DNA from: an uncultured Pseudomonadota bacterium
GTDB taxonomy: Bacteria > Myxococcota_A > Polyangia > Fen-1088
Assembly (NCBI GenBank): GCA_963725905.1
Contig: CAVSAG010000003.1
Coordinates: 449,546-513,545 of the forward strand
Reading direction: 5' to 3'
DNA length: 64,000 bases
Both the position numbers and the translations under genes were made by a program. Shown here piece after piece: positions 34,978 through 52,659 of the stretch. The notes beneath the pieces are model-generated. The model was not told the DNA's origin and did no database searches. It saw only the letters and a list, made by a program, of their open reading frames with translations. Within the stretch, counting starts at the first letter, position 1, and each line of letters begins with the position of its first letter.

Positions 34978-35006
34978 CCTGTGACCGCGAGCTGGACGAC
35001 GCGTGG

Positions 35007-36953: not shown

Positions 36954-36985
36954 AACGCGGAGACGCCACCCCGACGGCCTGGCGT

Positions 36986-37025
36986 GCGTCTGCCTGCTCG
37001 CCGACGCGGCGGCGCGCGCGCACGG
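36986..37025. repeat. R-family repeat, copy 1
   Basis: gcgtctgcctgctcgccgacgcggcggcgcgcgcgcacgg has 1 mismatch to 37800-37839. It sits 34 nt upstream of the 37059 lipoprotein gene. Confidence 0.8.
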
Positions 37026-37058
37026 GATCCGCGCCACCCGGATGTTCAGTCGACTACT

Positions 37059-37412: not shown

Positions 37413-37767
37413 CGCCTCGATGGGTCTACAGCCGATGGTGACCCCCGCCGAGACCACCGCCGCCTTTCTGCTCGCGCGCGTGCGGGCGGCGCGCGGGGCG
37501 GCGTGGGACGAGGGGCGCGGTCGCGTGCCGGCGCCGGCGCCGCCGTCCGGCCCGGCGTTGCGGACGTTCGCCTCACTCGGGAACCCTGGGAGGGTTCCCG
37601 AACCCTCCCGCGACGGACGCCGCCGGGCAAAGCCCGGCTACGTCCACGCGCCGAGCGGCGCGTCCGCGGCGTCCCCGAGGCGGTGGTCCGCGGCCTGCCC
37701 GCCTGGGACCGCGGCGAGCGGACGATCGACGCTGGGACCTCCTCTTCGAGGTCCCCCCGGCGCGCCG

Positions 37768-37839
37768 GGTGCTCGCCCTCCAGGCGCGCGGGCGGCGCTG
37801 CGTCTGCCTGCTCGACGACGCGGCGGCGCGCGCGCACGG
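37768..37839. repeat. R-family repeat, copy 2 (full-length hybrid)
   Basis: gtgctcgccc..gcgcgcgggcggcgctgcgtctgcctgctcgacgacgcggcggcgcgcgcgcacgg. The 5' half matches copy 4 (41420-41455) and the 3' half matches copy 1. It ends 4 nt from the ParE stop codon. Confidence 0.8.
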
Positions 37840-37842
37840 ACC

Positions 37843-38130
37843 CTACTTCTTCGCGATGGGGCGCCTGGCGTGGTGATAGACGCGGACGATTCGCAGCGCT
37901 TCCGCTGATCGCTGGTAGTAGATTCGGAACGACGCCACCGGCCAGCTCCTCACGACGGCGCCCGATCGCAATTGCACCTCCGGTCCCTGGAACTCACCTC
38001 GCGCGAGCCTTTCGATCATCGAGAGCAGCTGATCCTTCAGCTCGGTCGCCGCGATCGGGTTACTCGCTGCGAGGTACTCGACGGCGGAACGAAGATCTTG
38101 TCGCGCGCGTGGGGAGAACCTGACCTTCAA
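37843..38130 (-). CDS. parE: Type II toxin, ParE/RelE family
   Basis: 95 aa. KVRFSPRARQDLRSAVEYLAASNPIAATELKDQLLSMIERLARGEF...SFRIYYQRSAEALRIVRVYHHARR. Its TTG start overlaps the antitoxin stop as TTGA. Confidence 0.85.
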   Translation of the reverse strand: MKVRFSPRARQDLRSAVEYLAASNPIAATELKDQLLSMIERLARGEFQGPEVQLRSGAVVRSWPVASFRIYYQRSAEALRIVRVYHHARRPIAKK

Positions 38131-38342
38131 CGGCGGACGATCGCGTCGAGGTCAGCGCGAACTTCATCCAGATCGGCGCCTTCGCCGCGATCCAACGCAG
38201 CGAGCGCCTCTTCCAAGCCCTGTTCCTGCTCGGGCGTGAGCGCCGGCACAGCGTCGAGCGATTCGATCACATAGCGGCCTTCGGGCAGCTTGCGAAGCTC
38301 GTCCGGCAAGTCCCGGCCGTTCCACTTGAGCACCGTCGCCAT
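38127..38342 (-). CDS. Putative ParD-like antitoxin
   Basis: ATG at 38342 inside the listed 38127..38393 ORF. 71 aa: MATVLKWNGRDLPDELRKLPEGRYVIESLDAVPALTPEQEQGLEEALAALDRGEGADLDEVRADLDAIVRR. Acidic, and located upstream of and overlapping the toxin gene. Confidence 0.7.
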   Translation of the reverse strand: MATVLKWNGRDLPDELRKLPEGRYVIESLDAVPALTPEQEQGLEEALAALDRGEGADLDEVRADLDAIVRR

Positions 38343-38779
38343 ACCAGGACAATCATACACGAGGGTCCTTCGCCAGGGGGGAGCGTGGCGCACGGCACCG
38401 GGCTCCGCCCAAGGATCGAGACGTCGTCCAAAACATCATCGACGACGTTCCGCCCCCCAAGCCGGTGGACGATCTGGAAGGCGATCTCCTGGGCCTCTAC
38501 CTGACCACGGGACGCCTGCTGGCGGCGGGCGGTGCCGAGATCGAGCACGCCGGCGTGCAACCGGACGTCGAGATGGCCTGGCCCCCCGGCCAGCACCGGC
38601 AACCGGATGAAGACTGCGTGCGCCAGTTCGCGGAGGCCTTGATCGCTCGGGCCCGCGGTCCGGAGCGTTCGACGCTGCTCGCGACCGCGAAGACGCTCCC
38701 GGCCGAGGGGTTGTGCCGGTCGGTCGGGTTGCGCGGAGGCTAGCTCCGGGAGACGCGGCGCCGTTGCGCCTGCGCCTGG

Positions 38780-38816
38780 CATGCCTGCGGGGCGACGCGG
38801 CGGCGCGCGCGCACGG
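38780..38816. repeat. R-family repeat, copy 3
   Basis: catgcctgcggggcgacgcggcggcgcgcgcgcacgg lies about 20 nt 3' of the second ParE/RelE toxin gene. It shares gacgcggcggcgcgcgcgcacgg(g)gatcc with copy 1. Confidence 0.75.
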
Positions 38817-38835
38817 GGATCCCGCGGTGGGGCAG

Positions 38836-39141
38836 TTACGGCGCGTCTTGCAGCCGAGGCCCGCGGCGGCGGCTGGCGCCCCAGACGGCGCGGACGACGA
38901 TGCCTTCTTTGTCGAAGGTGAAGTAGACGTGCACGCCGATTCTTTCCACGAAGACCCGACGAACGCCCGGCACTCGTGGATACGACGTGCTCGCACCAGA
39001 TAGCCTGGCAATCAGGTCGATCGTCCGCTCGAGGTCCGACGTGAACGCCTCGACGTGATCGCGGTTACTGGTCCACCAATCGCGCTCGTGGAGGACGTGA
39101 CGTCGTGCCGTCGCGGTGAACTGAACGCGTCGCCGTTTCAC
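38836..39141 (-). CDS. Type II toxin, RelE/ParE family
   Basis: 101 aa. VQFTATARRHVLHERDWW...FTSDLERTIDLIARLSGASTSYPRVPGVRRVFVERIGVHVYFTFDKEGIVVRAVW. Its start overlaps the upstream antitoxin stop. Confidence 0.75.
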   Translation of the reverse strand: MKRRRVQFTATARRHVLHERDWWTSNRDHVEAFTSDLERTIDLIARLSGASTSYPRVPGVRRVFVERIGVHVYFTFDKEGIVVRAVWGASRRRGPRLQDAP

Positions 39142-39362
39142 GGCCGGCGGAGTTCGCGCAGCACGTCTTCGGCGCTGACGAGTCGACCGGCTTCGACGTC
39201 GCTCTCGGATTCCCGGAGCGCATCGTGAAGACGTGCTCGATCGGACTCGTCGAGCCAGTCCCCGGGGTCGAGCGGAAGAAGTTCGACCTCCGTCCCTTCG
39301 GGCAGATCCGTCGGCTCATCGACCACCAGCCGCCCGCCCTTCACGCGTGCCTTCAGGGTCAT
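39138..39362 (-). CDS. Putative antitoxin (swapped-hairpin/DUF104-like N-terminus)
   Basis: 74 aa. MTLKARVKGGRLVVDEPTDLPEGTEVELLPLDPGDW..., acidic C-terminus, 4-nt overlap with the toxin gene. Confidence 0.7.
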   Translation of the reverse strand: MTLKARVKGGRLVVDEPTDLPEGTEVELLPLDPGDWLDESDRARLHDALRESESDVEAGRLVSAEDVLRELRRP

Positions 39363-39603
39363 GGGGAGAGTCTACTGCACGGGCCGCGGGTCGACAGATC
39401 GCGACGCGCGCGAAGGGAGAATCGGACCTTCAACGGCGAACGATGGCGTTGAGGTCGGCCCGAACGTCCTCGAGGTCCGCGCCCTCGCCGCGATCGAGCG
39501 CGTCTACCCCGAGGGCGCCGATCGGAAAGAACGTGCTCTTCCCGCTTCCCGGCGGGCCCGCCACGACGATCATGACCGGGCGGGCGGGCTTCTTCGCGGC
39601 CAC
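39359..39603 (-). pseudogene. Chimeric TA wreckage: P-loop (zeta-like) toxin N-terminus fused to a ParD-like tail, followed by a 24-codon ParE 5' remnant
   Basis: My minus-strand translation of 39603..39430 is VAAKKPARPVMIVVAGPPGSGKSTFFPIGALGVDALDRGEGADLEDVRADLNAIVRR*. That is a Walker A N-terminus joined to the same 23-aa antitoxin tail seen at 38127 and 29903. Overlapping its stop (TTGA), LKVRFSLRARRDLSTRGPCSRLSP* (39433..39359) copies the first 13 codons of the 37843 ParE gene. Confidence 0.5.
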
Positions 39604-39609
39604 GGCGAC

Positions 39610-39855
39610 TTAGCCGGTTTCGACGCTGGTCAGCGACGCCGGACGCATGTCCGGGGGGAGCTCCCGAGAGACGAGGCGACCGTCGCCATCGATCACACCC
39701 ATCTGCTCCAGCCGCGACCGCGCTTGCTGTATCCGCCGCTCGGCCATGGCGTCCATGCGCGCGTCCCACGTCGCAACGTCAGCTTCGTCGTCGAGGTCGA
39801 GATCGTCGACACGAGCCTCTGGAATGGGGGACTCGTCCAGGGCGGTGGCGGCCAT
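39610..39855 (-). CDS. Small acidic protein, probable orphaned antitoxin of the truncated P-loop toxin
   Basis: 81 aa. MAATALDESPIPEARVDDLDLDDEADVATWDARMDAMAERRIQQARSRLEQMGVIDGDGRLV... Its stop lies 6 nt before the P-loop remnant. Confidence 0.5.
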   Translation of the reverse strand: MAATALDESPIPEARVDDLDLDDEADVATWDARMDAMAERRIQQARSRLEQMGVIDGDGRLVSRELPPDMRPASLTSVETG

Positions 39856-39901
39856 GATTCCTATTTTAGCACCGGCCTTCGGCGAGGGCGCTGACCTTCG
39901 G

Positions 39902-40744
39902 TCAGGGCCCTCTGCGGTCGTTCGGCGAGGAGATTACGGTCTGGGACCTGGAAAGAATGCCGGAGCCGTCGCTGGCAAAACGAATCACCACGGCCGAGAT
40001 GCGGTTGAAGGATTGGTAGTTCGCGGCCACGAGACGAATGGCTCCCGCCACGTCCTCCGCGGGCACGTCGCCGATGACTGTCCCCTGGTCGGTTTCGGCG
40101 AACAGACGCCAATGTGTCCAAGGCGGCTCGACGGCGGGAAGGCGGCGCTCCCACTTGGCTCGGAGTCCTGCACCCGGAAGGACGGGAGAGCCGGTCAGCA
40201 TCGCGGCCACCTCGTCCGTATCCCACCGTGCGGCACCGATGTGCTGCGAGATGATGTCGCCGTCCTTGACGATGAAGGTCGCTGGAATGGAGCGTGTCTC
40301 GAAGATCGGTGGCGTGTCGTCGGCGAGGACGAAGATCGGGATCCTCCACGGCTTACGAGAGGCAAAGGCCTTCACCTTCTCGAGCGGCTCGGTGGTGACG
40401 CACGCGAAGGCGACGTTCGCGCCCTCCAATCGACGCATCAAACGTTCGATGCTGGGCAACTCGGCCACGCAGGGCGCGCACCAAGTCGCCCAGAAATTCA
40501 GGAAGAGCGTCTGGCCCCGAAAAGTGCTCGCGCTGACGACCTCGCTCTCCAAAGTCCGCAACCGCATCTCGTAGTCCCAGCCCTTGAGCAGCTGCGGCCG
40601 CGCCGATTCAAGGCGGGAGGGCAGACGCCGCCGGACGAGCCGCAGGCCGAACCACAGCAGCACCCCGAGCAGCGCCAGCGTGACCAGCACCCCCAGCGCG
40701 ACGCCTATCAAGAGATCGTGCCTCACGGTGGTGACACCCGACAC
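39902..40744 (-). CDS. TlpA-family thiol:disulfide oxidoreductase, membrane-anchored, with an extra C-terminal domain
   Basis: 280 aa. TM helix LLIGVALGVLVTLALLGVLLWFGL. Thioredoxin motif LFLNFWATWCAPCVAELP; IPATFIVKDGDII. A ~100-aa C-terminal extension of unknown type. Confidence 0.8.
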   Translation of the reverse strand: MSGVTTVRHDLLIGVALGVLVTLALLGVLLWFGLRLVRRRLPSRLESARPQLLKGWDYEMRLRTLESEVVSASTFRGQTLFLNFWATWCAPCVAELPSIERLMRRLEGANVAFACVTTEPLEKVKAFASRKPWRIPIFVLADDTPPIFETRSIPATFIVKDGDIISQHIGAARWDTDEVAAMLTGSPVLPGAGLRAKWERRLPAVEPPWTHWRLFAETDQGTVIGDVPAEDVAGAIRLVAANYQSFNRISAVVIRFASDGSGILSRSQTVISSPNDRRGP

Positions 40745-40816
40745 TACTCGCCCCTTTGATGGATCGGCCAGGGGGAATCTGAGTCGACGCTGCGGCGGAG
40801 AGCTAGGACGGCTCGT

Positions 40817-41113
40817 TCAGCGCCGGGTCCAGTATCCCGAACGTCGCTTCAGATGCGCGACCGCAACGATCTCGATCTCGTCATCCGAAATCAGTCGATA
40901 GACGAGGGCGTAAGGAAACCGTCCCATCAACGTCCGTCGAGATCCCCGGGCCGCGGCCCAGCGCTCGGGTGCCTCCACGATCTCGTCCGCCTTCTTGCGA
41001 ACTGCGTGTACGAATCGGAGGCCGAGGCCGGGCGAGCGTTCGTCGTACCAAGCTGCAGCATCCTGCAGCTCGGCCTCGGCCATCGGGTTGAACCGCAGCC
41101 GTCTACTTGCCAC
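40817..41113 (-). CDS. Type II toxin, RelE/ParE family
   Basis: 98 aa. LRFNPMAEAELQDAAAWYDERSPGLGLRFVHAVRKKADEIVEAPERW...FPYALVYRLISDDEIEIVAVAHLKRR. Confidence 0.8.
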   Translation of the reverse strand: MASRRLRFNPMAEAELQDAAAWYDERSPGLGLRFVHAVRKKADEIVEAPERWAAARGSRRTLMGRFPYALVYRLISDDEIEIVAVAHLKRRSGYWTRR

Positions 41114-41330
41114 CGAATCGCTGCTCGAGACGCGCGAAAACGTCTTCGGCCGGGACCGTCTTCACGCGGCCGGTGTCCACGTCCTCCATCCGCCGCTTGA
41201 TCTCGCCCTCCCAATACTCGCCCAGATCCGACAGATCGAGACTGGCTGACAGCTCGTCGACGAGCTCTTCGCGCTCCTCGGGCCGAAGCTTGAGCGCGGC
41301 CTCGAGAACAGCCTTCGTGGCGGCGGACAT
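41103..41330 (-). CDS. Antitoxin of the 'putative addiction module component' type
   Basis: 75 aa. LKLRPEEREELVDELSASL...YWEGEIKRRMEDVDTGRVKTVPAEDVFARLEQR. 11-nt overlap with the toxin gene. Confidence 0.75.
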   Translation of the reverse strand: MSAATKAVLEAALKLRPEEREELVDELSASLDLSDLGEYWEGEIKRRMEDVDTGRVKTVPAEDVFARLEQRFGGK

Positions 41331-41490: not shown

Positions 41491-41838
41491 ATGCGTTTGC
41501 GCAGACTGGCTTTCGCGCTGCTCGTTGTCGGGGCGGCGGGGTGTGCGCACATGCAACCGACCCGCCTGTGGATCCGCTGCTGCGCGGGGGATGAACGCCC
41601 GGGCGGAGCCTGCGAAGAAGAGCAACGCTTCGCACAAGTCGTCCTGGACGGCACGGCGGCGGGTAAATGCGAGGACTGGGGAGGCGCCGGACGGTTGCTG
41701 GCGCCGGGGTGGCACCACATCGACGTCCAGGTTCGAGACGGTCGGGAAGGCTGTTGCTTCGCCGCCGACGTGGACCTCGAGGTCCCACCCGGCCAAACGA
41801 CCGCCTTTCGAGCCTACCTCGGTCGATTCCCCGATTGA
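41491..41838 (+). CDS. Small Cys-rich lipoprotein (paralog of 37059..37412)
   Basis: 115 aa. MRLRRLAFALLVVGAAGCAH...WIRCC...VVLDGTAAGKCEDWGG...GCC...LEVPPGQTTAFRAYLGRFPD. Confidence 0.7.
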   Translation: MRLRRLAFALLVVGAAGCAHMQPTRLWIRCCAGDERPGGACEEEQRFAQVVLDGTAAGKCEDWGGAGRLLAPGWHHIDVQVRDGREGCCFAADVDLEVPPGQTTAFRAYLGRFPD

Positions 41839-41911: not shown

Positions 41912-42590
41912 GTGCCTGTATCGACCACGATCAGAGCGGCAAATGCGGACGAGCTGGGGGTGATCGCGCGGCGGATGGACCGCGGGCGCGAAGGTGCCTT
42001 CGCCAGGGGGGGAGCGTGGCGCCGGGAAGCGGTTCGCGTGGGCGTCATTGGCGCCGTGGCGACGGTGGCTTCTGCGGTCCTGGTCCTCCGGACGCAGACA
42101 GGCGCCTTCGTCATCGGCGGCGCGCTCGGACTGACGTTCGTGGCCTTTGGTCTGCTGGGCTCGCGGCGTGCTAGCCGGTCGATCGAGGTTCGGCTGGCGG
42201 AATGGGGGCAGGCGCGCCATCACGGAATACCGGATCACGGCTGATCGGATCGTCACCGCCGCGGGCGAGGACGGAGACGTGTGGTGGCTGTTCCGGATCG
42301 ACCCTGGTGCTTGGCTGGCCTTCGAGCAAGGACAGTGGGATGGCGTCGACGGGTCGGCGCACCTGTGGTGCCGTGAGGCACGAATCGGCGTGGATGCTCA
42401 TCGCACGGTTGTTTCGATCGAGAGCACGGGCGACCCCATCGTGGTCGAACGACGCGACCTGCGACCACCGGACTTCGCGCCGACACCCGAGACACTGTTC
42501 TGGTCGCCGCCCGACGAGGCCGGCCCGTTACCCGTGCAGATCGCCGGTGATCCGACCGTCCCGATCGCGACTACATCATCGCCGACATGA
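41912..42590 (+). pseudogene. Two-TM membrane protein with a probable 1-nt insertion in a G5 run
   Basis: The listed ORF 41912..42244 has two TM helices (VGVIGAVATVASAVLVL, FVIGGALGLTFVAFGLL). The listed ORF 42147..42590 is only protein-like from ...AITEYRITADRIVTAAGEDGDVWWLFRIDP onward. The frames meet at the G5 run 42204-42208; G4 would give ...IEVRLAEWGRRAITEYRIT... The last 30 nt overlap J-box copy 3. Confidence 0.5.
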
Positions 42591-42730
42591 ACGGCTCCGC
42601 CGTGTTCCTGCTCGCCGCGCTGAAGATGCGGCTCGGCCTGGCGGCGCGGCGGTGTGGGGTCGGCGCGGAGGCGGCGGGACGGGGCGGGGGAGGCGGGGCG
42701 GGTGTTGGGGTGGTTCGAGGGGCTGGGGCG
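42561..42730. repeat. J-box copy 3 (42561-42601) plus G-rich cassette leader copy L (42651-42730)
   Basis: ccgatcgcgactacatcatcgccgacatgaacggctccgcc, followed 50 nt later by ggtgtggggtcggcgcggaggcggcgggacggggcgggggaggcggggcgggtgttggggtggttcgaggggctggggcg. The latter aligns with 46521-46597 at about 70-75% identity by eye, with the blocks in the same order. Confidence 0.7.
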
Positions 42731-42852
42731 CGGCTCGAAAACGGGAAACCCGCCGAGCCATTGATTCTTCCAGTAGGTTGGTAGTAATGTTGTGGTGAAC
42801 GTTGAGCTAGGAAGACGGGCCGCGCAATCGACATCCGCCACAGTAGGGAGAG

Positions 42853-44050
42853 ATGGCCGGCAAAGGATGAAACGTCCTAGAAGTTGGGAGGCTAAAAGCC
42901 GTCGCACCTGGGCAGGCGCTCGGCTACAGCCTCCAGTTCACCCGACTCACGGAGATGCTTCTTGCCGCGGCGCCAGGAACGTCGTGCACCTTGGAGGTTC
43001 TCGATGCGGAGATTGGCACCCATTGGCAGGTTGTCCTTGGGCAATCCAAGAGTGCGTTGACGGACAATCCAGTCGCCGACAGGGCACTTCCGCTCTGGAA
43101 GACGATCTCGACGGCTTGAAGGTTGCGAAGGAAGGCCTTGTCGAGCCTGAGCGCAAGACAACAATGTTCGAGCTCTATGTCTCGCGCCCGGTCAGTGGGA
43201 CGCTGATCGACGCATTCAACGCTGCCCGAACTCATGAGGACGCTGTGTTGGCGTTAGAGAAGGCGCGCCACGAACTCTGGGGCGACGGCCCCGATCTCTC
43301 TTCGCCCTTCCCTGTCGACCGCGATCGCCCCATACGTAAACGAGGTACTCGAAACCGAGGATTGTCTCCTCGCGCCGATCGTGATGGGCGACCTTACTGC
43401 GGCTCAGGGAGCCCTCAAGCCGATATCGAGGCGGCGATCCGCCAGGGGCCCGTGTCGGATGCGAAGGTCTTCACGATTGCGGACAAAATGTGCGGCTGGG
43501 TAAAACGACAGGTCGACAAACAGCTTGAGCGCGGGCTTCCGGCATTAGTTCAACGGGACGATTTTCATCGCGAGTATGTGGCGTTTGTTCGAAGTGTTGA
43601 CCGAGATATCATTCTTAGGAGCTTCGCAAAAAAGCCGTCTCAGTCCGATCTCCTGAGAGCACTTACCGGACCTATTTGTCCAGCAGCTCGACTGGATAGA
43701 CTTGGGGTTCGACGAGAAGTTGGAAGCTGTCAGTGACTATCTCAGATCTTCGATCGGGTCACCTGGAGCAAATCCGGTGATGTGCATGAAGACTCGTTCA
43801 TTGGCCTCAACGAGCAGCTGTGCCGCGTCTGGCGGAATAGCGCTCGTGCAGCCAGCCTAGAAGGCGCGGCGAGTTCAGACACCGAGCGTGAAAGGCGTGC
43901 ACTCGCTGTATGACCTACGAAACAAACGTGCAAGGCATGGAGGCCCCGGCGCACTTTGTTCCAGGATGTTTTCATCGGCTCGCCGACGAAGCGACCATTG
44001 GCTGGCATCCAGCGTATAAGGCCCGCTTGAAAGCTCGCTCCGCGTCATGA
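42853..44050 (+). pseudogene. ABC-3C-type effector gene (DUF4297/Cap4-like nuclease N-terminus plus ABC-3C C-terminal domain), multiply disrupted
   Basis: Conceptual translation pieced from three frames. MAGKG*NVLEVGRLKAVAPGQALGYSLQFTRLTEMLLAAAPGTSCTLEVLDAEIGTHWQVVLGQSKSALTDNPVADRALPLWK / LDGLKVAKEGLVEPERKTTMFELYVSRPVSGTLIDAFNAARTHEDAVLALEKARHELWG / LSTAIAPYVNEVLETEDCLLAPIVMGDLTAAQGALKPI / VFTIADKMCGWVKRQVDKQLERGLPALVQRDDFHREYVAFVRSVDRDIILRSFAKKPSQSDLL / HLPDLFVQQLDWIDLGFDEKLEAVSDYLRS / IFDRVTWSKSGDVHEDSFIGLNEQLCRVWRNSARAA / NVQGMEAPAHFVPGCFHRLADEATIGWHPAYKARL. Lesions: TGA at 42868, and frameshifts near 43100, 43290, 43425, 43658, 43745 and 43900. Confidence 0.55.
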
Positions 44051-44548
44051 CGGCGCTGGCGCGAGAGATACGGAATATCCAAAACCCCGCTCTCGGTGCC
44101 GGTCTAGTTTGGCGGTTCGTCTGCTGGCTACACGTCGGATCACCCGACCCGTGATCCGGCTCCGCTTCCCGCCTTGTTTCTTGTACTGCCCATTGTCTTG
44201 CACGAAGAGACTGACTCGTTCGTCCGGAGCACTCTACTGTCTTCCGGCCTTCGGTCATTCGCGGCGAAGTTCGGCACCTCCGCAAACTCAAAGCAAGATC
44301 TGCTGCTGGCGATTCACGCACGGATGCTTGCTCTGCGTCCGTTGACCCTCGCCTCAGTGCGCATCGCGCTCGCGACGCGACTCCTTCACCTTGAGACGGC
44401 CGCCGTGATTCCACTCTCGACGACCAAGGCCCAGGCCGGCATCCTCCCTGACACAAAACGGCTGATGAAGAGTGCGGAAAAACTTGGGGCGTGGTGCGGT
44501 CGCCTGACCTTGCACGAGATTGCGACAACCTTGAAAGTGAGATTGTGA
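44047..44548 (+). pseudogene. ABC-3C middle-component gene with one frameshift
   Basis: The ATG overlaps the upstream stop (ATGA). MTALAREIRNIQNPALGAGLVWRFVC, then a shift near 44122-44150, then GYTSDHPTRDPAPLPALFLVLPIVLHEETDSFVRSTLLSSGLRSFAAKFG...DLLLAIHARMLALRPLTLASVRIALATRLLHL... (listed ORF 44174..44548). The pattern matches what I recall for three-component ABC system middle components. Confidence 0.55.
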
Positions 44549-44551
44549 AAC

Positions 44552-46599
44552 GTGTTGTTCCAAATCAGAGAACTTGTCCTCTGGCCGCGCGACACAGCCT
44601 TCGCTCCGCGACGCGTGCCATTTGCGCCGGGGAAGGTCACGGTGATCAGCGGTGCTTCACGCACAGGAAAGTCTGCCGTCATACCAATAATCGACTATTG
44701 CTTGGCCTCCAGTGCCTGCCTGATCCCTGTCAAGACGATCCGTGAGGCCTCTGAGTGGTTTGGGATCGTGGTCAGCACCGCCAATGGCGATAAGTTGCTC
44801 GCGCGTCGGGAGCCCGGGAGTCAGCGGTCTACAGATGACAGGTTTCTCCTCGAGGCTCCCACAATTTCAGAGGTGCCTAGAGTCATCAGAAAGAACACGA
44901 GTGCGCCCGAGGTGCGCAGACTTCTCGATGAACTGGCAGGTCTCGAACCTGGACTTCGGTAGCGGTGAGACGCAGCAAGGCTTCGACGCGAGGCCGAGTT
45001 TCCCAGACCTAAGTGCCTTCACATTCCAGCCAGAATGTTGTCGCCAACCGAGAGATCCTGTTTTCAAAACGGATCGCTACGAACATCGTGAAAGCTTCGC
45101 AAGATATTCCCCTACGTTCTCGGCGCTATCACCCCGACTTTGCTGGCCGAACAACACGAGCTTAGGCGGCTGCAGACGGAATTGAAGCGAAAAGAACGAG
45201 AACTGCGCGATGCGCAGCAGATATCCGCGCAGTGGATTGCTGAGCTGAGAGCGCGGGTCAGCGAGGCGCGAGAGCTCGGCTTGCTGCCGATGGCGGCATC
45301 AGGTGATCTCGCTGAAGCGATGATCGTGCTCCTGAGGAAATTGTAACAGCGGACGGACGCGACTTTAGCCGTCAGTGCATCGACGATCTCGGACGCTGTT
45401 CGCGAACTGAATGCGCTCGACAATGAGGAGTCGAGTGTATCCCACGACCTAACAAGGCTTCGCTGGCGCCTTACGGAAATGAACCGCGTGCGCGAGAGCG
45501 TCACTAGCTATCGCGACGCTCTGCGGATACAGCGTGATCGACTTAGCTTGGCGGACTGGCTTGGAACCCACAGATCGGGCGATGAAAAGTGTCCGCTGTG
45601 TGGTGGAGGAACGGAGCCCAGCGAGAAAATGCTGCATGAACTCCAGGCATCCCTAGTGGAGCTTGCTCGTGAGGCGGGCGATACGTTCGAGGTTCCCGAA
45701 GTTTGACCGGGAATTCGAGAGGGTTCAGACGGACGTAAATGACGTCGCCGACAAGCTGAAGGCTGTGCAGATTCGCAAGCGAGCGCTGTCGCAGCGGTCG
45801 AAGGAGTAGATGATATGCAATACCAGGCGAAGAAGGTCGAGCGCTTCATAGGTAATCTCGAGAACGCGCTGACGTTGTACCGACGCCTCGGCGAGGACGG
45901 AGGGATCGCGACGGAGGTCGAGATGTTGCGCCTGCAGGTCGCGAAACTGACCGAAGAACTCCGTGCGCAAAACCTCGACGAACGGAAACGCCGCGCTTTG
46001 CGTATCGTCAACGGAAACGCTGGTCGCCTAATGCCGCTGCTGGATACCGAACGACCAACCGATCCTGTATCGCTGACATCAACGATCTGACGATCAGGGT
46101 AACGGGCACGGCGCGTGAAGACTACCTCTCCGAGATCGGCAGCGGATCAAATTGGCTCTCGTATCACCTCGCCATGAGTCTCGGCCTTCAGCAGTTTCTG
46201 ATCACCTTAGACCACAACGCAGTCCCGAGCTTTCTCGTGTTCGATCAGCCGAGTCAGGTCTATTTTCCTAAGAGAGCGGCGATTCGCGACTCGGAGGTGC
46301 CGGACGATCCGGGGCTCAGAGACGAAGACACCGAGGCCGTTCGGAAGGCATTCGAGGTAATGGGTCTGGTTGTAGGTAGTGCCAAGGGTCGACTCCAGAT
46401 CATTGTTCTCGACCATGCGCCTCGTGAAGTGTGGGGATCGGTTCCCAACGTGGTTGAGTTCGAGGAGTGGCGCGGCGGGAAGAAGCTCGTCCCTCCGGAG
46501 TGGATTCTAAGTAGCCGTCAGGCGTGGGCGGTAGCGGAGGCGGCCGGACGGGCTGGGGAGGCGGTGAGGTGTTGCGGCCGCTTGAGGGGTGAGTGCTAG
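44552..46599 (+). pseudogene. DUF3732-type ABC/SMC-like ATPase of an ABC-3C system, multiply disrupted
   Basis: N-terminus [65 protein letters not shown] (Walker A). Then FTFQP/QNVVANREILFSK/TDRYEHRE/KLRKIFPYVLGAITPTLLAEQHELRRLQTELKRKERELRDAQ. Coiled coil with KCPLCGG (~45589-45606). C-terminus DINDLTIRVTGTAREDYLSEIGSGSNWLSYHLAMSLGLQQFL...VPSFLVFDQPSQVYFP...LQIIVLDHAP. Lesions: frameshifts near 44930, 45030, 45068, 45093, 45705, 45808 and 46075, plus an in-frame TAA at 45344-45346. The native stop was probably near 46510; the ORF tail runs into leader copy M. Confidence 0.75.
46521..46597. repeat. G-rich cassette leader, copy M
   Basis: ggcgtgggcggtagcggaggcggccggacgggctggggaggcggtgaggtgttgcggccgcttgaggggtgagtgc. 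This is a high-GC patch inside the low-GC island, collinear with 42651-42730. Shared blocks: GCGGAGGCGGC.GGACGGG, GGGGAGGCGG, GGTGTTG.GG, GAGGGG.TG.G.GC. Confidence 0.7.
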
Positions 46600-46842
46600 A
46601 CAGGACCGTCAATGACACTTCGTAGGTATGACGGTAGACACTCGAGGGCGGCCATCTCCATGGGCTCAACCTCACGCCGGGCGGTGGGTGACCTGTGTTG
46701 TCTTGTGACCGGCGACGGTATACAGTTGTTCAGGTATGGTCCTCCGGCTTCTCGATGGCCTCCAGAACCGAAGAACGAAGCCCATCCAAAAATGCGCTTC
46801 GGTGAGCGGCAGGTAGAGTCATGCTCCGCTTATCTCGTCACC

Positions 46843-47727
46843 ATGAACATCTTCGACTCGCCGGCCCAAACGCTGGTGAATACGGTGAATACCGTCGGGA
46901 TCATACTGGGCAAGGGAATCGCCGCCGAATATAAGAAACGATACCCCGAGATGTTCCACCGGTACGCCGAGTTCTGCGCCAACGGAATGCTAACCACCGG
47001 GATGTTGTACCTCTATCGAAGCCCGAACAAGTGGGTGCTGAACTTCCCAACCAAGCGTCATTGGCGGAATCCTTCCAAAGTAGAATACATTGAGGAGGGA
47101 CTTAAGAAGTTCGTGGCCACCTGGGCTGAGTACGGCATCACGAGCATCTCGTTTCCACAGTTGGGTACAGGCAACGGCGGGCTGGACTGGGAAAAGGCCG
47201 TTCAGCCCCTGATGGAGCGACACCTAAAGGATCTGCCCCTATCGATATTCATCCACGTTGCGAAGACCCGCTCCGATTTGTCCCTGAGCAGAAGAACGCG
47301 GTCAGCCGGAAGCACTTGCTCAAACCGAGAGTGGACGTCAGTTTCAATGAGTTTTTTTCTGATTCCTCTCGGAACACGCGAGTGGCGTGGAGCCGGTGGC
47401 GAGCAATGAGACCGGACGAGAGGAGCCAGAACCTCTTCCGCGGCTCCGATGCTCCGATCGTCTGACCATAGCCGGGGAGGATTTGCGCTCTCTGTGGCTC
47501 TATTAACCTTGCGCGGGGCGTTGCGGATCGACGAATTCCCCGCCAGCCTCAAGAAGCATTCTGAGGTCGTAACTTCGTTACTTCTTCAGCTCGGCTACAT
47601 CCGTCCGGCTCAGTTCACGGGCGATAGCGCGCGCAACATGAGAGGAATCCGCTTCGCTCCTGCTGCCGATGAGTCTCCTGAGTCAACTCAGCCGATGACG
47701 CCCGAGCTTGAAGCCCTGGGCCGGTAA
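46843..47727 (+). pseudogene. DarG-like macrodomain protein with a C-terminal extension, disrupted by frameshifts
   Basis: From the ATG at 46843: MNIFDSPAQTLVNTVNTVGIILGKGIAAEYKKRYPEMFHRYAEFCANGMLTTGMLYLYRSPNKWVLNFPTKRHWRNPSKVEYIEEGLKKFVATWAEYGITSISFPQLGTGNGGLDWEKAVQPLMERHLKDLPLSIFIHV. These are the macrodomain hallmarks VNTVN..G..GKGIA, FPTKRHWR and GNGGLDW. The reading continues in other frames: EDPLRFVPEQKNAVSRKHLLKPRVDVSFNEFFSDS... and ...LTLRGALRIDEFPASLKKHSEVVTSLLLQLGYIRPAQF. Frameshifts near 47255, 47463 and 47505. Confidence 0.8.
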
Positions 47728-47773
47728 GCTTCGGCAGCATGTCTTTGGCTGGCAGAAAACGCTGCCAAAGGAC

Positions 47774-48609
47774 ATGGCCCAGTTCGTCTATCGCTTCGAC
47801 GAACTTAAGAATGCCATCAATATCTTAAACCAGGGGTACTGGCCCAGTTGAGCCGAGTGCGAGAGGCGGGGTGTTCCGTTCGTAGATTGCGCGAGTTCAA
47901 CCGTCATCGCGAACACCCTCGGCTCCCATAAGGACTTCGTCCGCATTCTATCCTCGAACCCCGACGCAGTACCACAACGAAGGGATCCGGCCCGTATCGT
48001 CCTATTCGAACCAGGGGGCTCACTGCGCTGTACCCGTGTTCATGATGTTCGATTTCGTGAACTTGCTCGCCGACGACCAGACGCAGTTTTCGATAGGAAA
48101 CATGGCGAGCGCTGGCGTTGAGTTCGGCGCCAGTGAGGCACTCTTCGCAGAGTATTCCATTCGACCTCGTATATCACCGAGGATCGACCTGGGGCCATCA
48201 GAATGCCGGTACGATTACGTTTCATCGCCACGCCGAAGTGCTGGTGCCCGTGAGCTTGTCCACAGAGGGAATCAAGCGGATCGTTTGCCGTTCGCATCCC
48301 GAACGCCGAACGCTCCTGTACGGGTTGAGCCCGGGAATCCGTGCGCGCTTTGAAAACGTAGTTAGCGTCGAGGCAAGTGAGTTTTTCGAGCGCGCTTGGG
48401 CGTTTGTTGAAAAGGTCGAGCCGGGAAACGGTTCTTTGAAATTTACCTTTCATGCTGCCGATTCTCTCCCATCACCCCTGCGTGTGACCTTCAGGTACGA
48501 GGACGGGACCCGTACGTGGGGCTGGCAAGAACACTGGCAACTTCGCAGGCCGTTGACTATGGACCTCTCGAAGGCCGGTCCTATGGGAGTGGCGACGCTC
48601 TGGATTTGA
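47774..48609 (+). pseudogene. DarT-like ADP-ribosyltransferase with a C-terminal extension, disrupted
   Basis: Pieced translation: MAQFVYRFDELKNAINILNQGYWPS*AECERRGVPFVDCASSTVIANTLGSHKDFVR / FYPRTPTQYHNEGIRPVSSYSNQGAHCAVPVFMMFDFVNLLADDQTQFSIGNMASAGVEFGASEALFAE / IPFDLVYHRGSTWGHQNAGTITFHRHAEVLVPVSLSTEGIKRIVCRSHPERRTLLYGL..., followed by ~100 aa more. The motif order (N-terminal ..NIL..G, F.PRTP..Y, FS.GN.AS, RHAEVLVP) parallels DarT/DUF4433 as I remember it. Lesions: in-frame TGA at 47849-47851 and frameshifts near 47945 and 48155. Confidence 0.5.
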
Positions 48610-48667
48610 AGGAGCCAAGGCGTTCCAAGACAAGGTTATTCTCACTGAAGCGCCACTCTGATCGCAG

Positions 48668-48700
48668 GCCGCCCCACCCTCGACACCCCGCCCCCTCCTC
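48668..48700. repeat. Possible inverted partial copy of the G-rich leader at the right island edge
   Basis: The reverse complement gaggagggggcggggtgtcgagggtggggcggc resembles ggggaggcggggcgggtgt...tcgaggggctggggcgcggc of copy L. It is short and low-complexity, so this is tentative. Confidence 0.3.
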
Positions 48701-48716
48701 TGCTAAACCCGCGCCC

Positions 48717-49913
48717 ATGAAACTCTTCGTCGAGGACCTCCCCGTCACTGGCAAGCGCGTCATCGTGCGCGTCGACTTCAACGTCCCCCTGAAGGACGGG
48801 AAGGTGGAGAGCGACAAGCGGCTCCGGGAGTCGCTGCCGACCATCGAGTACCTGCGCAAGAAAGAGGCGAAGGTGATCTTGATGTCGCACCTCGGGCGGC
48901 CCGACGGGAAGCGCGTGCCGGAGATGAGCCTGCGGCCCGTCGCCGATGCGCTCTCCGCGCTCCTCAACTCGCCCGTCGCCTTCGCCGAGGACTGCGTCGG
49001 GCCGGCCGCCGAGAAGGCCGTCTCCGCGCTCGCCCCCGGCGGCGTGCTCCTGCTCGAGAACCTCCGCTTTCACGCCGCCGAGGAGGAGAACGATCCCGCG
49101 TTTGCCAAGCAGCTCGCCGCGCTGGCCGACGTCTACGTGAACGACGCGTTCGGCAGCGCCCACCGCGCGCACGCGTCGACCGAGGGGATCACCAAGTTCG
49201 TGCCGCAGGCGGCGTCGGGGTTCCTCATGAAGAAGGAGCTCGACTACCTGGGCGAGGCGCTCGGGAATCCGAAGCGGCCGTTCGTCGCGGTGATCGGCGG
49301 GTCGAAGGTGTCGGGGAAGATCGACGTCATCAAGAACCTCCTGCCGCGCGTCGACAAGCTGCTGATCGGCGGCGGCATGACCTACACGTTCCTGAAGGCG
49401 CAGGGGCTGGAGGTCGGCAAGTCGATCGTGGAGAACGACAAGATCGAGCTCGCCAAGAGCCTGATGGCCGAGGCCGGCGACAAGCTGGTGCTGGGGACCG
49501 ACTTCGTGGCGACCGACAAGCTGGACTTCAAGGCGCGCACCGTGGGGGCGACCAAGGTCGTGACCAGGACGACCATCCCGGCCGACTGGGAGTGCGTCGA
49601 CATCGGGCCGGAGACCACGGCGGAGTTCACCAAGATCCTGCTCGGCGCCAAGACCGTCTGCTGGAACGGCCCGGTGGGCGTGTTCGAGATTGATGCCACC
49701 GCCAAGGGGACGATCGCCGTCGCCGAGGCGCTGGCCAAGGCGACCGCGGCCGGCGCGACCACCATCATCGGCGGCGGCGATTCGGCGTCTGCCGTGAAGA
49801 AGGCGGGCGTCGCCAGCAAGGTGTCGCACGTCTCGACCGGCGGCGGCGCGTCGCTGGAGTTCCTCGAGGGCAAGGTGCTCCCGGGCGTCGCGGCGCTCAG
49901 CGACAAGAAGTGA
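48717..49913 (+). CDS. pgk: Phosphoglycerate kinase
   Basis: ATG at 48717 inside the listed 48516..49913 ORF. 398 aa. VIVRVDFNVPL, LMSHLGRPDG, NDAFGSAHRAHAST, AVIGGSKVSGKI, LLIGGGMTYTF, WNGPVGVFE, STGGGASLEFLEG. Confidence 0.95.
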   Translation: MKLFVEDLPVTGKRVIVRVDFNVPLKDGKVESDKRLRESLPTIEYLRKKEAKVILMSHLGRPDGKRVPEMSLRPVADALSALLNSPVAFAEDCVGPAAEKAVSALAPGGVLLLENLRFHAAEEENDPAFAKQLAALADVYVNDAFGSAHRAHASTEGITKFVPQAASGFLMKKELDYLGEALGNPKRPFVAVIGGSKVSGKIDVIKNLLPRVDKLLIGGGMTYTFLKAQGLEVGKSIVENDKIELAKSLMAEAGDKLVLGTDFVATDKLDFKARTVGATKVVTRTTIPADWECVDIGPETTAEFTKILLGAKTVCWNGPVGVFEIDATAKGTIAVAEALAKATAAGATTIIGGGDSASAVKKAGVASKVSHVSTGGGASLEFLEGKVLPGVAALSDKK

Positions 49914-49948
49914 GCGACGGCCTGCGCGCGTAGGGAATTCGAACAGGG

Positions 49949-49965
49949 CGTCTCAAAACGAGACG
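49949..49965. terminator. Weak hairpin between the convergent pgk and 49953(-) genes
   Basis: cgtctc-aaaac-gagacg: a 6-bp stem with no U-tract, overlapping the stop codon of the minus-strand gene. Confidence 0.2.
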
Positions 49966-50630
49966 GTCGCACCGCCGAACGCGAAGCGCTGGGCCGGGTC
50001 GTAGCCCAGCTGCCATTGCAGCGGCTGCTTGCTCAGCCGATTGTTCTTGTTCACCAGGTCCGTCAGCTCCTGGTGGGTGGGCCAGCTGGCGTAGGCGACC
50101 AAGCCTCCGGCAATCATCGCGCCGACACCCAGAAAGCCGAACGCCGCCATCTTCTCGACGTTCCCCTGGTTGCAAGCGCCCCAGGCCGCGGAGTCCGCCG
50201 CGAAATTGGGGTCGGTGATCGAGGGTTGGGCGCAGTTGTCCGCGCTCGCCACGCCATAGATCACGGAAATTAGACCGACGGCGATTCCGCCCGCCAAGAC
50301 GACCTTCGCCCTGTCTTCCCGGGACTCGAGGCGCGCCGCATCCGGCGCCAGCTGCCCGTAGAGACCGGGATCGCTCGACCTGATGCTCTCCAGGTACGCC
50401 TGGAACCCGGTGACGCTGGCGTCGAAGCGCTGGTTCCCGGCCTGGAGGTGCTCGGGAATCACGACCGCGCTCTGATTCGAGGCGGCCTGCTGCTGGAGCA
50501 TCTGTTGATTCATATTCTGCTGGAGCAGTTGCTGTTGCAGGATCTGATCCTCCTGCGCTCGCCCGGCACGCGGCGCGAGGACCGCGGCAACCAGCAGGCT
50601 CACTCCCAACGACACTCGATATTTCGTCAT
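49953..50630 (-). CDS. Exported Gln-rich protein with C-terminal membrane segments (hypothetical)
   Basis: ATG at 50630 inside the listed 49953..50927 ORF. MTKYRVSLGVSLLVAAVLAPRAGRAQ signal, a QQQLLQQNMNQQMLQQQ stretch, two hydrophobic helices, and the ending ...AFGGATVSF. Confidence 0.65.
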   Translation of the reverse strand: MTKYRVSLGVSLLVAAVLAPRAGRAQEDQILQQQLLQQNMNQQMLQQQAASNQSAVVIPEHLQAGNQRFDASVTGFQAYLESIRSSDPGLYGQLAPDAARLESREDRAKVVLAGGIAVGLISVIYGVASADNCAQPSITDPNFAADSAAWGACNQGNVEKMAAFGFLGVGAMIAGGLVAYASWPTHQELTDLVNKNNRLSKQPLQWQLGYDPAQRFAFGGATVSF

Positions 50631-50740
50631 GACTCCTCCCGATCGACGCTCCGGGCAGAAACCACAGCAATCAGAGGGCCAACCACCCGCTGGCGTTTTT
50701 GGTGAGCACCCGCAGAAGGGAGGTCTAAGCTCGAACGACA

Positions 50741-51385
50741 ATGTATGGGCGGGTTGGTCGTTCGCTAGCTCTGACCGCGTTGCTCGTTGCTTGCTCGAGC
50801 GCGCCGTTGACGCCGACGGGTGGTGGGGGCTTCGGTGCGTTGGGTGGAAGAGGCGCGGGCGGGAGAGGCGCGGCCGGAGCCGGCGGTCGGATGGCCGGAG
50901 GCGGAGGCGCGGCGGGCCCGGGTGCACCCGTCGATGCTTCGGCCCCCGATCCCTGGACGTACAACGGGCAGCCCGTGACCAAGATCGACGTCAAAGGGTG
51001 TCGCCCTTACTACGGGTGCGACGTCTGCACCCTGACGCTGGCTGGCTCTGCGGACGCGGCCGTGCCCAACAACTATGGTTTGCCTTCGCAGCTGCTCTGC
51101 TCCCCGCCGCCGGCCGAGCCCGGCACGGTCGATTCGTCGTCGCTCGTGGACCAAGGCGGCCTTTCGCTGCCCGCGCTTTGTGGATTCTCCGCTCCGGATG
51201 GGGGCTCCTCCCCGACGATCACCGAGATCGTCCTTCAGCCGGACGTCGGCCCGTCGCCCCGCAGCGGATTCCCGAACGCCTACTGTCAGTTCCTGCCCGG
51301 CCCGACGATCGCCGAACCGGATGGATGCCTCTTCCTGAACCTCCAGGATGATTTCTGCGTCTCCGATTGCTCGCAATGTCCGTAG
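50741..51385 (+). CDS. Cys-rich lipoprotein (paralog of 56217..56993)
   Basis: 214 aa. LALTALLVACSS lipobox and a Gly linker. Motifs shared with the paralog: APVDAS.PDPW.Y.G.PVT.IDVK.C, AYCQFLP, CVSDCS.CP. Confidence 0.7.
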   Translation: MYGRVGRSLALTALLVACSSAPLTPTGGGGFGALGGRGAGGRGAAGAGGRMAGGGGAAGPGAPVDASAPDPWTYNGQPVTKIDVKGCRPYYGCDVCTLTLAGSADAAVPNNYGLPSQLLCSPPPAEPGTVDSSSLVDQGGLSLPALCGFSAPDGGSSPTITEIVLQPDVGPSPRSGFPNAYCQFLPGPTIAEPDGCLFLNLQDDFCVSDCSQCP

Positions 51386-51482
51386 GTGGGCACGCCGTGG
51401 CGAGGACGTTCCTCGTCCTCGAGTTGCATGTCCCGGACCTGGGGCCGGTCGCTTTCCCGCAGGCCCGAAGCGCGCCGGGTCG

Positions 51483-52136
51483 TCAGCGCTTCTGGTAGGT
51501 CTCGGCCCGATCGGAGTTCGGGCTGCTCGTGCCCGAGTTCTTGATGAAGATCGTGAACGTCGTGGGGGTCGCCGTGAAGGTAGCCGTCGAGGTGTCGAGC
51601 GACAAGGGCCCACCGTCGACGCCAAGGTCGATGCAGGTCACGGTCCTGCTGATGGTCGCCCCCGACACCGTGCGGGTGGTGGAGACGGTCACCGGGATTG
51701 GCAAGCTGGTCACCTCCTGGACGCACGCGCCCGCGATCTCCAGCGTTGCGTTGACCGGTGTCGACGAGCAAGCCGTCGTGCCGTAGTAGGTCTGCGAGGT
51801 GAGCGTGTACGTCCCGTCGACGATTGTTCCCCCTCTCCCGGTCGGAATCGCTCCGGCCACGCAGGTCGGCGTGACTGCCGCGCCGACGCTCGCGACCGTG
51901 TTGCAGGCCTGACCGGCGGGGACGTTGGCGCTGCAGCTCCCGGCGCCGGCGTCCGACGCTGGGCCGTTGCCGGCGTCCGATGCGGCGTCGCCAGCATCCG
52001 CGACGGTCTTGCTGGCGTCCGATGTTGGGCCGTTGCCGGCGTCCGATGCGGCCTGGGGTGACCCGCAAGCGGCCCCAGCACAGAGGTACGCGATGGCCGC
52101 AACCCAAAGACAGCTCGCCCCGTATCGATAAGTCAT
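51483..52136 (-). CDS. Lipoprotein (paralog of 54820..55719)
   Basis: ATG at 52136 inside the listed 51483..52286 ORF. MTYRYGASCLWVAAIAYLCAGAACGS. DAG/DAS repeats. GGTIVDGTYTLTSQTYYG and the C-terminal ...FTATPTTFTIFIKNSG are shared with the paralog (GGTIVDGTYYLSESISYTG). Confidence 0.7.
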   Translation of the reverse strand: MTYRYGASCLWVAAIAYLCAGAACGSPQAASDAGNGPTSDASKTVADAGDAASDAGNGPASDAGAGSCSANVPAGQACNTVASVGAAVTPTCVAGAIPTGRGGTIVDGTYTLTSQTYYGTTACSSTPVNATLEIAGACVQEVTSLPIPVTVSTTRTVSGATISRTVTCIDLGVDGGPLSLDTSTATFTATPTTFTIFIKNSGTSSPNSDRAETYQKR

Positions 52137-52194
52137 GTGTGAGAGCGTACGCCGAAGCTCCACTGCCGCATAAATCGGGCGGCGGACGTCGGAG

Positions 52195-52659
52195 TTGTGG
52201 AATGCTTGCGCAATGGTCGATCGCCGCGCGTTCTCGGTCGCCGTCTTCTGCCGCAACGGCGGGGAGATCCTGCTCGTGCGCCACAAGCGCCTCGAGCTTT
52301 GGTTGCCGGTGGGGGGCGAGATCGAGCCGGGCGAGACGCCGCTCGAGGCCGCGCGCCGCGAGCTCCGCGAGGAGACCGGCCTCGAGGGCGTCTTCCCGAC
52401 CGTCTATCCGGCCGGCCAGGCGGCCGGCTTTGGCGTCGACGGCACGCCGCCCGGCCTCATCGGCTACGAGGAGCACCCGGCCGGCAGCAAGGGGCTGCAC
52501 CTGAACTTCGCGTTCGTCGCCGACGTCGCAAGTCGCGCGCTCGTTGCCTGCGACGAGTACACCGCCGTCCGTTGGGTCGGCGATCCCGTCGACGTCGAGT
52601 GCCCGCTCAACGTCCGCCAGCTGGTCCGCCTCGCGCTTGCCGCGGGTCGACCGGGATAA
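52195..52659 (+). CDS. NUDIX hydrolase
   Basis: 154 aa. Nudix box GGEIEPGETPLEAARRELREETGL. The start may be the Met at 52213. Confidence 0.85.
   Translation: MWNACAMVDRRAFSVAVFCRNGGEILLVRHKRLELWLPVGGEIEPGETPLEAARRELREETGLEGVFPTVYPAGQAAGFGVDGTPPGLIGYEEHPAGSKGLHLNFAFVADVASRALVACDEYTAVRWVGDPVDVECPLNVRQLVRLALAAGRPG

Follow-up and report, generated by a model that had tools for sequence, protein, structure and literature searches.

A 64,000-nucleotide (nt) stretch of contig CAVSAG010000003.1, from an uncultured soil myxobacterium of the class Polyangia (assembly GCA_963725905.1, positions 449,546 to 513,545 of the forward strand; hereafter the window, in whose own numbering all coordinates are given), carries a lower-GC island just upstream of the pgk gene. 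By homology the island encodes two defence cassettes, a short Lamassu system and a DarG-DarT toxin-antitoxin pair, and all of its genes are interrupted by small insertions and deletions (indels). We think it somewhat likely, with a probability of roughly 0.55, that these lesions are consensus errors confined to the island and that the genes are intact in the cells that carry it. Both the artefactual status of the lesions and their locality are inferred from tests internal to the sequence. The island would then be a real two-cassette defence islet that was horizontally acquired and sits in a variable hotspot just upstream of the pgk core promoter. Errors of this kind could have been introduced by thin long-read coverage, if the island is strain-variable and carried by part of the population, or they could have been left in a long-read draft whose polishing failed at the island.

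Composition and edges of the island

The island (42740..48666, + strand) is delimited by GC content, GC at third codon positions (GC3) and tetranucleotide distance, and all three bear out the abrupt change of base composition described in a first-pass annotation of this DNA. GC is 0.578 in the island and 0.697 in the rest of the window, where the lowest value of any other 5.9-kb stretch is 0.658. In 1-kb windows it is 0.57-0.59 at 43-48 kb, 0.60 in the edge window at 48-49 kb and 0.61-0.76 in all that remain. The five island genes have a GC3 of 0.65-0.71, against 0.97 for pgk. Measured against the remainder of the window, the island has a tetranucleotide L1 distance of 0.453 and other stretches reach 0.174 at most, a 2.6-fold difference. 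Three A/T-rich words quoted in the first-pass annotation each occur once, and only inside the island. The island is compositionally foreign, horizontally acquired DNA. This upholds the proposal that it holds acquired conflict systems, since its composition is foreign, its genes are Lamassu and DarTG, and it is absent from all 11 of the Polyangia/Myxococcota pgk loci compared. The gene content was also described correctly, as five + strand genes in two cassettes with none intact.

At the right edge, the darT stop lies at 48659-48661 and similarity to DarTG loci is gone by about 48666. No integrase or transposase domain occurs in the island or in the 20 neighbouring open reading frames (ORFs) scanned, and no tRNA, tmRNA or Rfam family was matched anywhere in the window. 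A sigma-70 promoter and terminator scan of the island returned nothing beyond shuffled expectation. Among mobility hallmarks, the flanking repeat seen is an imperfect G-rich repeat of about 72 nt around the Lamassu cassette, and nothing else. Copy 1 (42651..42722, strand not assigned) lies at the left edge of this cassette and copy 2 (46520..46589, strand not assigned) lies between the cassettes. When the 72-mer of copy 1 is compared with both strands of the window, copy 2 is its best match (score 59); the next best unrelated stretch scores 41, and the mean is 21 (standard deviation 5). Because this direct repeat brackets the Lamassu cassette, it suggests that the two cassettes arrived separately. 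Copy 2 is read through by lmuB, whose native stop is absent.

The Lamassu cassette

Open segments of the three + frames were stitched together and then scanned with Pfam and PADLOC. The first gene, lmuA (42867..44050, + strand), is predicted to encode a Lamassu effector whose N-terminal domain is Cap4-like and whose C-terminal domain is CTD7 (Pfam CTD7, E = 6.7e-12; PADLOC LmuA, E = 2.3e-16). In a frameshift-aware alignment it is 57-59% identical to the intact LmuA of two homologous loci (L081 and L082), and its N-terminal 95 amino acids (aa) align to intact homologues. An intact LmuA homologue matches the Cap4-type LmuA chains 9hqu_C (4e-124) and 9nxx_A (4e-40) in the PDB. The protein would therefore combine C-terminal oligomerisation with an N-terminal Cap4 domain that is a predicted nuclease.

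The start of lmuC (44047..44548, + strand) overlaps the lmuA stop in an ATGA, and the gene sits between lmuA and lmuB. Its product corresponds to the ABC-3C middle component MC3 (Pfam MC3, E = 1.2e-32, profile positions 3-158 of 159) and also matches PADLOC LmuC. It shares 122 of 166 residues with the LmuC of L081, and its nearest intact homologues are 68-73% identical. The third gene, lmuB (44552..46512, + strand), encodes an SMC-like ABC ATPase (DUF3732/LmuB_C). It matches Pfam DUF3732 (PF12532) with E = 6.8e-50, and PADLOC recognizes both its N-terminal half (3.8e-50) and its C-terminal half (2e-57). LmuB is 71% identical to intact 657-aa homologues across 99% of its length and retains the Walker A (GASRTGKS) and FDQPSQ motifs.

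When intact Lamassu homologues are compared with the solved LmuA and LmuB chains of the Salmonella and Vibrio types, E values range from 1e-40 to 1e-261. Three loci (L081-L083) hold intact operons of lmuA (398-407 aa), lmuC (166 aa) and lmuB, and these operons are located in defence islands beside BREX/TIR genes or CBASS. Judged by homology, cassette 1 is a short Cap4-type Lamassu (ABC-3C) system, and its reading frames are interrupted in the sequence as given. In Lamassu systems, the LmuB2-LmuC complex holds LmuA inactive until DNA ends are sensed, and LmuA, once released, tetramerises into an active nuclease (10.1101/2025.03.14.643221; PMC12663957). The island system would be expected to work in the same manner, with LmuB2-LmuC sequestering LmuA and DNA ends prompting its release and assembly into the active tetramer.

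The DarG-DarT cassette

The second cassette begins with a darG-like gene for a macrodomain antitoxin (46821..47727, + strand, with an alternative start at 46842). Its product matches Pfam Macro (E = 5e-18) and PADLOC DarG (E = 4e-54), and 263 of 301 residues are identical after frame correction. The following gene, darT (47708..48661, + strand), has a TTG start and is predicted to encode a DNA ADP-ribosyltransferase toxin of a long (~320 aa) subfamily. The stitched protein matches Pfam DarT (PF14487) with E = 2.2e-10 over profile positions 1-176 of 201, and PADLOC DarT with E = 5e-6. It keeps the HAEVLVP motif and is 69-74% identical to homologous proteins of 292-318 aa, P0121 and P0122 among them. 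The homologues P0121-P0128 carry precomputed PF14487 assignments.

The two genes overlap in an operon-like manner, and the DNA of the cassette is 83% identical to that of locus L085. A Macro gene (299-300 aa) precedes DarT in all five of the related loci L084-L088. The cassette is best read from these similarities as a macrodomain-first DarG-DarT toxin-antitoxin pair. By homology, DarT is predicted to ADP-ribosylate single-stranded DNA and the macrodomain to take the modification off. Members of the macro-first long DarT subfamily (L084-L088, P0251-P0398) are about 300-335 aa long and widespread. A first search with 10 matches had made the subfamily appear rare, and this was overturned by an exhaustive search that returned 249 clusters (50% identity) at E <= 1e-30. 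Neither the macro-first order nor the long DarT is new, because both are common to this sizeable subfamily. No solved structure was matched by the long DarT subfamily at the sequence level. We found no closer copy of the island: the best matches are 71% identical for LmuB, 74-80% for DarT and 83% for the DarTG DNA, and a distant-mode search of plasmids gave fragments only, at 71-73%.

Lesions

Lesions were placed with a dynamic programme that aligns protein to DNA and can advance by 1, 2, 4 or 5 nt at a codon. Two or three intact homologues were used as references for each gene, and the references agree. Lesions in the DarTG cassette were additionally placed by DNA-DNA alignment to L085 and L084. 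In total, 21-24 indel lesions are spread over 5.8 kb of the island together with 2 in-frame stops, and all five genes are broken. The earlier tally was at least 19 frameshifts and 3 stops.

In the Lamassu cassette, lmuA has about seven frameshifts (near 42892, 43107, 43303, 43389-43398, 43657, 43749 and 43897-43904) and lmuC has a single +1 frameshift near 44126. The seven frameshifts of lmuB (near 44943, 45031, 45063, 45092, 45702, 45806 and 46075) are all losses of 1-2 nt each. Several of these losses occur in short runs or repeats: T5 becomes T4, A4 becomes A3, T5 probably becomes T3, GG becomes G (twice) and CTCTCG becomes CTCG. This gene also has an in-frame TAA at 45344-45346, and a probable -1 near 46503 deletes its native stop, so that the frame continues to 46599.

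In the DarTG cassette, comparison with L085 and L084 reveals +4 nt at about 46831 in the N-terminus of darG, -1 at 47280, +2 at about 47364 and -1 at 47504. An in-frame insertion of 3 nt (46904-46906) falls within the conserved Gly-rich GIMGKG loop of the same gene. The darT gene has a TGA at 47849-47851 where homologues have CGA, and its indels are -5 nt at 47945, +1 near 48153 and +1 near 48605. L085 and L084 are themselves 24% divergent and have zero internal indels between them.

Every island indel is 5 nt or shorter, all five genes are full length, and the operon overlaps are kept. Lesions are spaced at about 1 per 250 nt in each of the two cassettes. In the other 58 kb of the window, called the backbone from here on, they are at least 50-fold sparser. 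Two backbone frameshifts are confirmed, and they may be either real pseudogenes or signs of long-read assembly. The first is in a gene for an extracytoplasmic function (ECF) sigma factor at about 27108 (- strand), where a C6 run is present and C7 is needed. The second is in an arylsulfatase gene at about 5100 (- strand), at GACGTCGAGCGCC, with a possible GAGAGC-to-GAGC contraction. One site is thus a contracted homopolymer and the other probably a contracted dinucleotide repeat, which fits a long-read-derived sequence. The backbone had earlier been credited with about four frameshifts. Two further candidates, proposed by a GC3 and Viterbi frame-switch scan, are false: the one at 2437 is a normal ATGA gene overlap, and the one at 14421 is a low-complexity Gly/Thr-rich stretch.

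A link between the lesions and methylation motifs was considered and rejected. Eight of 24 lesions are 12 nt or less from a GATC (p = 0.054). With an uncorrected p of about 0.04 this motif comes fourth among the 129 tetramers tested, and it is as dense in the backbone as in the island. The Lamassu cassette has 2 runs of at least 5 nt, whereas its homologues, at 50% GC, have 17 and 11, almost all of them A/T runs. This deficit is not significant once it is scaled for GC, and DarTG has no deficit.

Artefact or decay

The first-pass annotation framed the choice as one between rapid decay and an error-rich assembly. The dichotomy is right, and the sequence-internal tests lean to error and not to decay. 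The most serious competitor to consensus error is a genuine and very recent pseudogenisation after long functional residence in high-GC hosts, in which the systems lost their value or were counter-selected as toxic and then collected slippage-type indels under an indel-rich mutation spectrum. We consider this history possible, although we are inclined to doubt it. Three features of the island and one of the backbone cause us to lean to error: the window branch has no excess of non-synonymous changes, no indel is longer than 5 nt and no gene is shortened, lesions are equally dense in two independent cassettes, and the backbone frameshifts are of the homopolymer and dinucleotide-contraction type.

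The first feature comes from a relative-rate test on the 582 codons of DarG and DarT, with L085 as the sister and L084 as the outgroup. There are 87 synonymous and 43 non-synonymous changes on the window branch and 60 and 37 on the branch of the intact L085 (Fisher p = 0.48). The non-synonymous excess on the window branch is consequently 6, with an error of about 9. If the approximately eight indels of this cassette were accompanied by the usual several-fold excess of substitutions, then 15-60 extra non-synonymous changes would be expected. A substitution-to-indel ratio of 10:1 (about 60 extra non-synonymous changes) is excluded by the test. Relaxed selection, in the sense of a non-synonymous excess, is absent from DarG and DarT, which speaks against pseudogenisation. 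The excess synonymous changes on the window branch are enriched for AT-to-GC (60 versus 22 on the L085 branch), and the GC3 of DarTG is above that of its homologues. Together these two trends indicate that the genes probably ameliorated while they were functional, during long residence in GC-rich hosts.

The sizes of the lesions are also difficult to reconcile with decay. Deletions in curated bacterial pseudogenes are on average about 19-40 nt long, and among 104 of them 23 are longer than 15 nt (PMC6054270). Given this long-tailed spectrum, the probability that none of about 15 deletions is longer than 15 nt is approximately 0.02, yet the roughly 22 events in the island include no deletion above 5 nt and leave five genes at full length. 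More than 20 frameshifts are accompanied by just 2 stops. The neighbouring geneX remnants (see below), which are certainly dead, show larger lesions, with an 80-nt insertion, an extra 8 nt and a truncation. If the lesions were due to decay, then their equal density in two independently inserted cassettes would require that both lost constraint simultaneously.

Several observations weigh against consensus error, and most of them also support pseudogenisation. Lesions occur only in the dispensable island, and adjacent genes, including accessory ones, are intact (the ParE toxins, an AhpC-like gene and pgk). Because the adjoining genes are intact, errors would need to end exactly at the island edges. 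Multi-base indels (+4, +3, +2 and -5) are unusual in a polished consensus and fit near-raw coverage only. A substitution-to-indel ratio of about 3:1 is compatible with the relative-rate data, and ratios down to about 3:1 occur naturally in some bacteria (PMC8717266), this being the most indel-rich reported spectrum that we found. In LmuB, about 121 columns are invariant across 117 homologues, and the island protein is changed at 4 of them. This is a slight excess over the 0-3 changes of the other proteins in the set, so some substitutions, either real or erroneous, accompany its indels. These four changes are far under the approximately 10 that would be expected at 3-4% neutral divergence, and the window LmuB is an outgroup to all close homologues. 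Pseudogenisation further gains from the surroundings at 35-48.7 kb, which are truly decayed and rearranged (geneX fragments and nested insertions), and from the one stop that is a CGA-to-TGA change. It would be the only viable reading if the assembly is short-read only.

A more specific proposal, that the lesions are real and that a short burst of small indels disabled two unrelated and potentially self-toxic systems at once, strikes us as improbable. If it were true, it would constitute a distinct and fast route for switching off a defence island, with hardly any substitutions and no large deletions.

The island might instead be a chimeric join, in which the assembler spliced in sequence from another low-abundance organism. 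The sharp compositional edges and a lesion density typical of poorly covered sequence are what such a join would give. However, both junctions return to one locus, with the C-terminal remnant of geneX on the left and the pgk leader on the right, and no long repeat that could mislead an assembler is present at either. An insertion is also to be expected at this position, given that relatives have other defence or toxin-antitoxin genes there. We judge a chimeric join very unlikely. Local biological damage, such as error-prone repair at a silenced island or self-inflicted DarT lesions, would suit an indel-rich spectrum limited to about 6 kb with several indels in T-rich contexts, but it is the least credible explanation of all, as no known mechanism restricts such mutagenesis to an island, the lesions have no motif association (GATC being unremarkable among the 129 tetramers), and DarT acts genome-wide on single-stranded DNA.

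The insertion locus

The 11 loci have in common pgk itself and, in six cases, a NUDIX gene immediately after it, and no other gene is syntenic. Upstream of pgk no two genomes agree, and defence or toxin-antitoxin genes (SIR2, nSTAND, ParE and ORF6N) are frequent there. No true empty site was seen among these loci, and the closest relatives are just 94% identical in Pgk. In the closest relative with data (L002), a dehydrogenase gene and an intact 247-aa ORF that we call geneX (L002:16-759) are located upstream of pgk.

Pieces of geneX are scattered to the left of the island. Residues 140-177 are at 34938-35051. Residues 1-105 are at 37438-37853, where a hairpin-containing insertion of about 80 nt and 8 further nt break up the reading frame and the ParE toxin-antitoxin block truncates it. 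A C-terminal remnant forms the left flank of the island (42561..42670, + strand), with residues 168-194 at 42572-42652 according to blastn and tblastn against L002. A 41-nt direct repeat joins two of these pieces (42561-42601 and 35011-35051, 97.6% identity). The distribution of geneX remnants over 8 kb looks as though accessory DNA had inserted several times in this one gene or beside it. Because geneX is in pieces and ParE-type toxin genes extend across 37.8-41.2 kb, the island is the pgk-proximal part of an approximately 11-kb stack of nested accessory insertions.

The insertion in the N-terminal remnant (37571-37650) forms a strong hairpin, GGGAACCCTGGGAGGGTTCCC, with a predicted energy of -20 kcal/mol over 45 nt. 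It has no second copy in the window and may be a small element resembling a repetitive extragenic palindrome (REP) or a miniature inverted-repeat transposable element (MITE). The ParE/RelE-type toxin cluster occupies 37846-41161 (- strand), with Pfam ParE matches at 37846-38151 and 40820-41161. A further ORF at 38839-39315 is ParE-like by eye, and small upstream partner ORFs lie beside the ParE/RelE genes. An AhpC/TSA-like gene (39905-40816) lies amid the cluster, all of whose genes are intact. The toxin-antitoxin block is flanked by two paralogous small Cys-rich lipoprotein-like ORFs (36954-37409 and 41491-41838, ...AAGCAH...RCC...). A Pfam scan of the one at 36954-37409 returned no match.

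A second variable spot lies downstream of pgk. An extra 2.3 kb (49914-52213) separates pgk from the NUDIX gene (52174-52659) here, unlike in the six relatives, and it contains ORFs without Pfam matches, such as 49953-50927 (- strand).

pgk and its leader

The pgk gene (48717..49913, + strand) is intact and encodes 398 aa. Its product is 94% identical to the closest Pgk in the databases searched (5.8 billion proteins; GTDB representatives). An alignment of seven Polyangia pgk upstream regions identifies the 41 nt directly before the start codon (48676..48716, + strand) as a native leader and core-promoter block and not as island DNA. This leader is conserved with three loci (L002, L089 and L091) whose upstream genes are unrelated. 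It consists of TCGACA, an 18-nt spacer that ends in TGC and overlaps the TGnTAAA motif, TAAACC, 7 nt and the ATG. TGnTAAA is invariant in all seven loci (the window, L001, L002, L007, L010, L089 and L091), 13-16 nt before the pgk start. No Shine-Dalgarno sequence is evident upstream of pgk in any of the seven. The arrangement suggests an extended -10 promoter, which might produce a leaderless or nearly leaderless pgk mRNA with a predicted start 6-8 nt downstream of TAAACC. The proposed dependence of pgk expression on island sequence is unsupported, because the gene keeps an intact native control region, which begins beyond the right edge of the island and runs up to the ATG.

Implications

The damage in the island, which consists almost purely of small indels and shows no relaxation of selection, finds its most economical explanation in a local problem of assembly quality. 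If the lesions are artefacts, then a defence island that varies between strains can, once it is part of a metagenome-assembled genome, mimic a pseudogene graveyard. Automated annotation would miss two complete defence systems, and pseudogene counts and defence censuses would both suffer. Should the lesions be real, then Lamassu and DarTG were discarded together at a pgk-adjacent hotspot, which would represent ordinary defence turnover with an unusually indel-rich spectrum. In either case, the hotspot beside pgk and the conserved TGnTAAA leader are modest findings that can be put to further use in the genomics of Polyangia.

Comparison with known systems

Lamassu and DarTG are both known families, and nothing in the architecture of the island is new. 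The closest characterized counterparts of cassette 1 are the short (type II) Lamassu systems, also named ABC-3C systems with MC3 and CTD7, of Salmonella enterica (LmuACB; PDB 9HQU/9HQX) and Vibrio cholerae (Vc-Cap4; 9NXX, 9NY5). The island shares with them the gene order, the overlapping or adjacent gene ends, an LmuB of about 657 aa, a 166-aa MC3 LmuC, and an LmuA with CTD7 and a GQSK motif in its N-terminal domain. It differs from them in that all of its genes are interrupted as assembled, by 15-16 frameshifts and 1 stop. Compared with its nearest Lamassu homologues, the island has a GC of 0.58 instead of 0.50, and its cassette is bracketed by the G-rich imperfect direct repeat.

Cassette 2 resembles DarTG2-type systems in that a DarT-family ADP-ribosyltransferase (PF14487) is encoded beside a macrodomain DarG. 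In the canonical DarTG order the toxin gene comes first and the antitoxin gene second, whereas the island has the macrodomain gene before darT. In addition, the island DarT is about 300-320 aa long, with a C-terminal extension of about 100 aa past the Pfam domain, and both genes are broken as assembled.

The lesions themselves can be compared with two kinds of damaged sequence. Decaying defence islands and pseudogenes likewise involve dispensable acquired genes, multiple disabling lesions and a variable hotspot. The island departs from real pseudogene sets (PMC6054270) in that large deletions and truncated genes are absent and non-synonymous changes are not elevated. It resembles low-coverage Nanopore metagenome assemblies in that its indels (about 0.4%) are small and deletion-biased and come with few substitutions, and in that some of them are in short homopolymers or dinucleotide repeats. 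The C7-to-C6 type of frameshift in the backbone is also like those in such assemblies. Indel errors that depend on coverage, and truncated genes, are reported for long-read metagenome assemblies at low coverage (PMC9262707). The present case differs from low-coverage Nanopore assemblies in that its errors, if such they are, are restricted to one 5.9-kb island.

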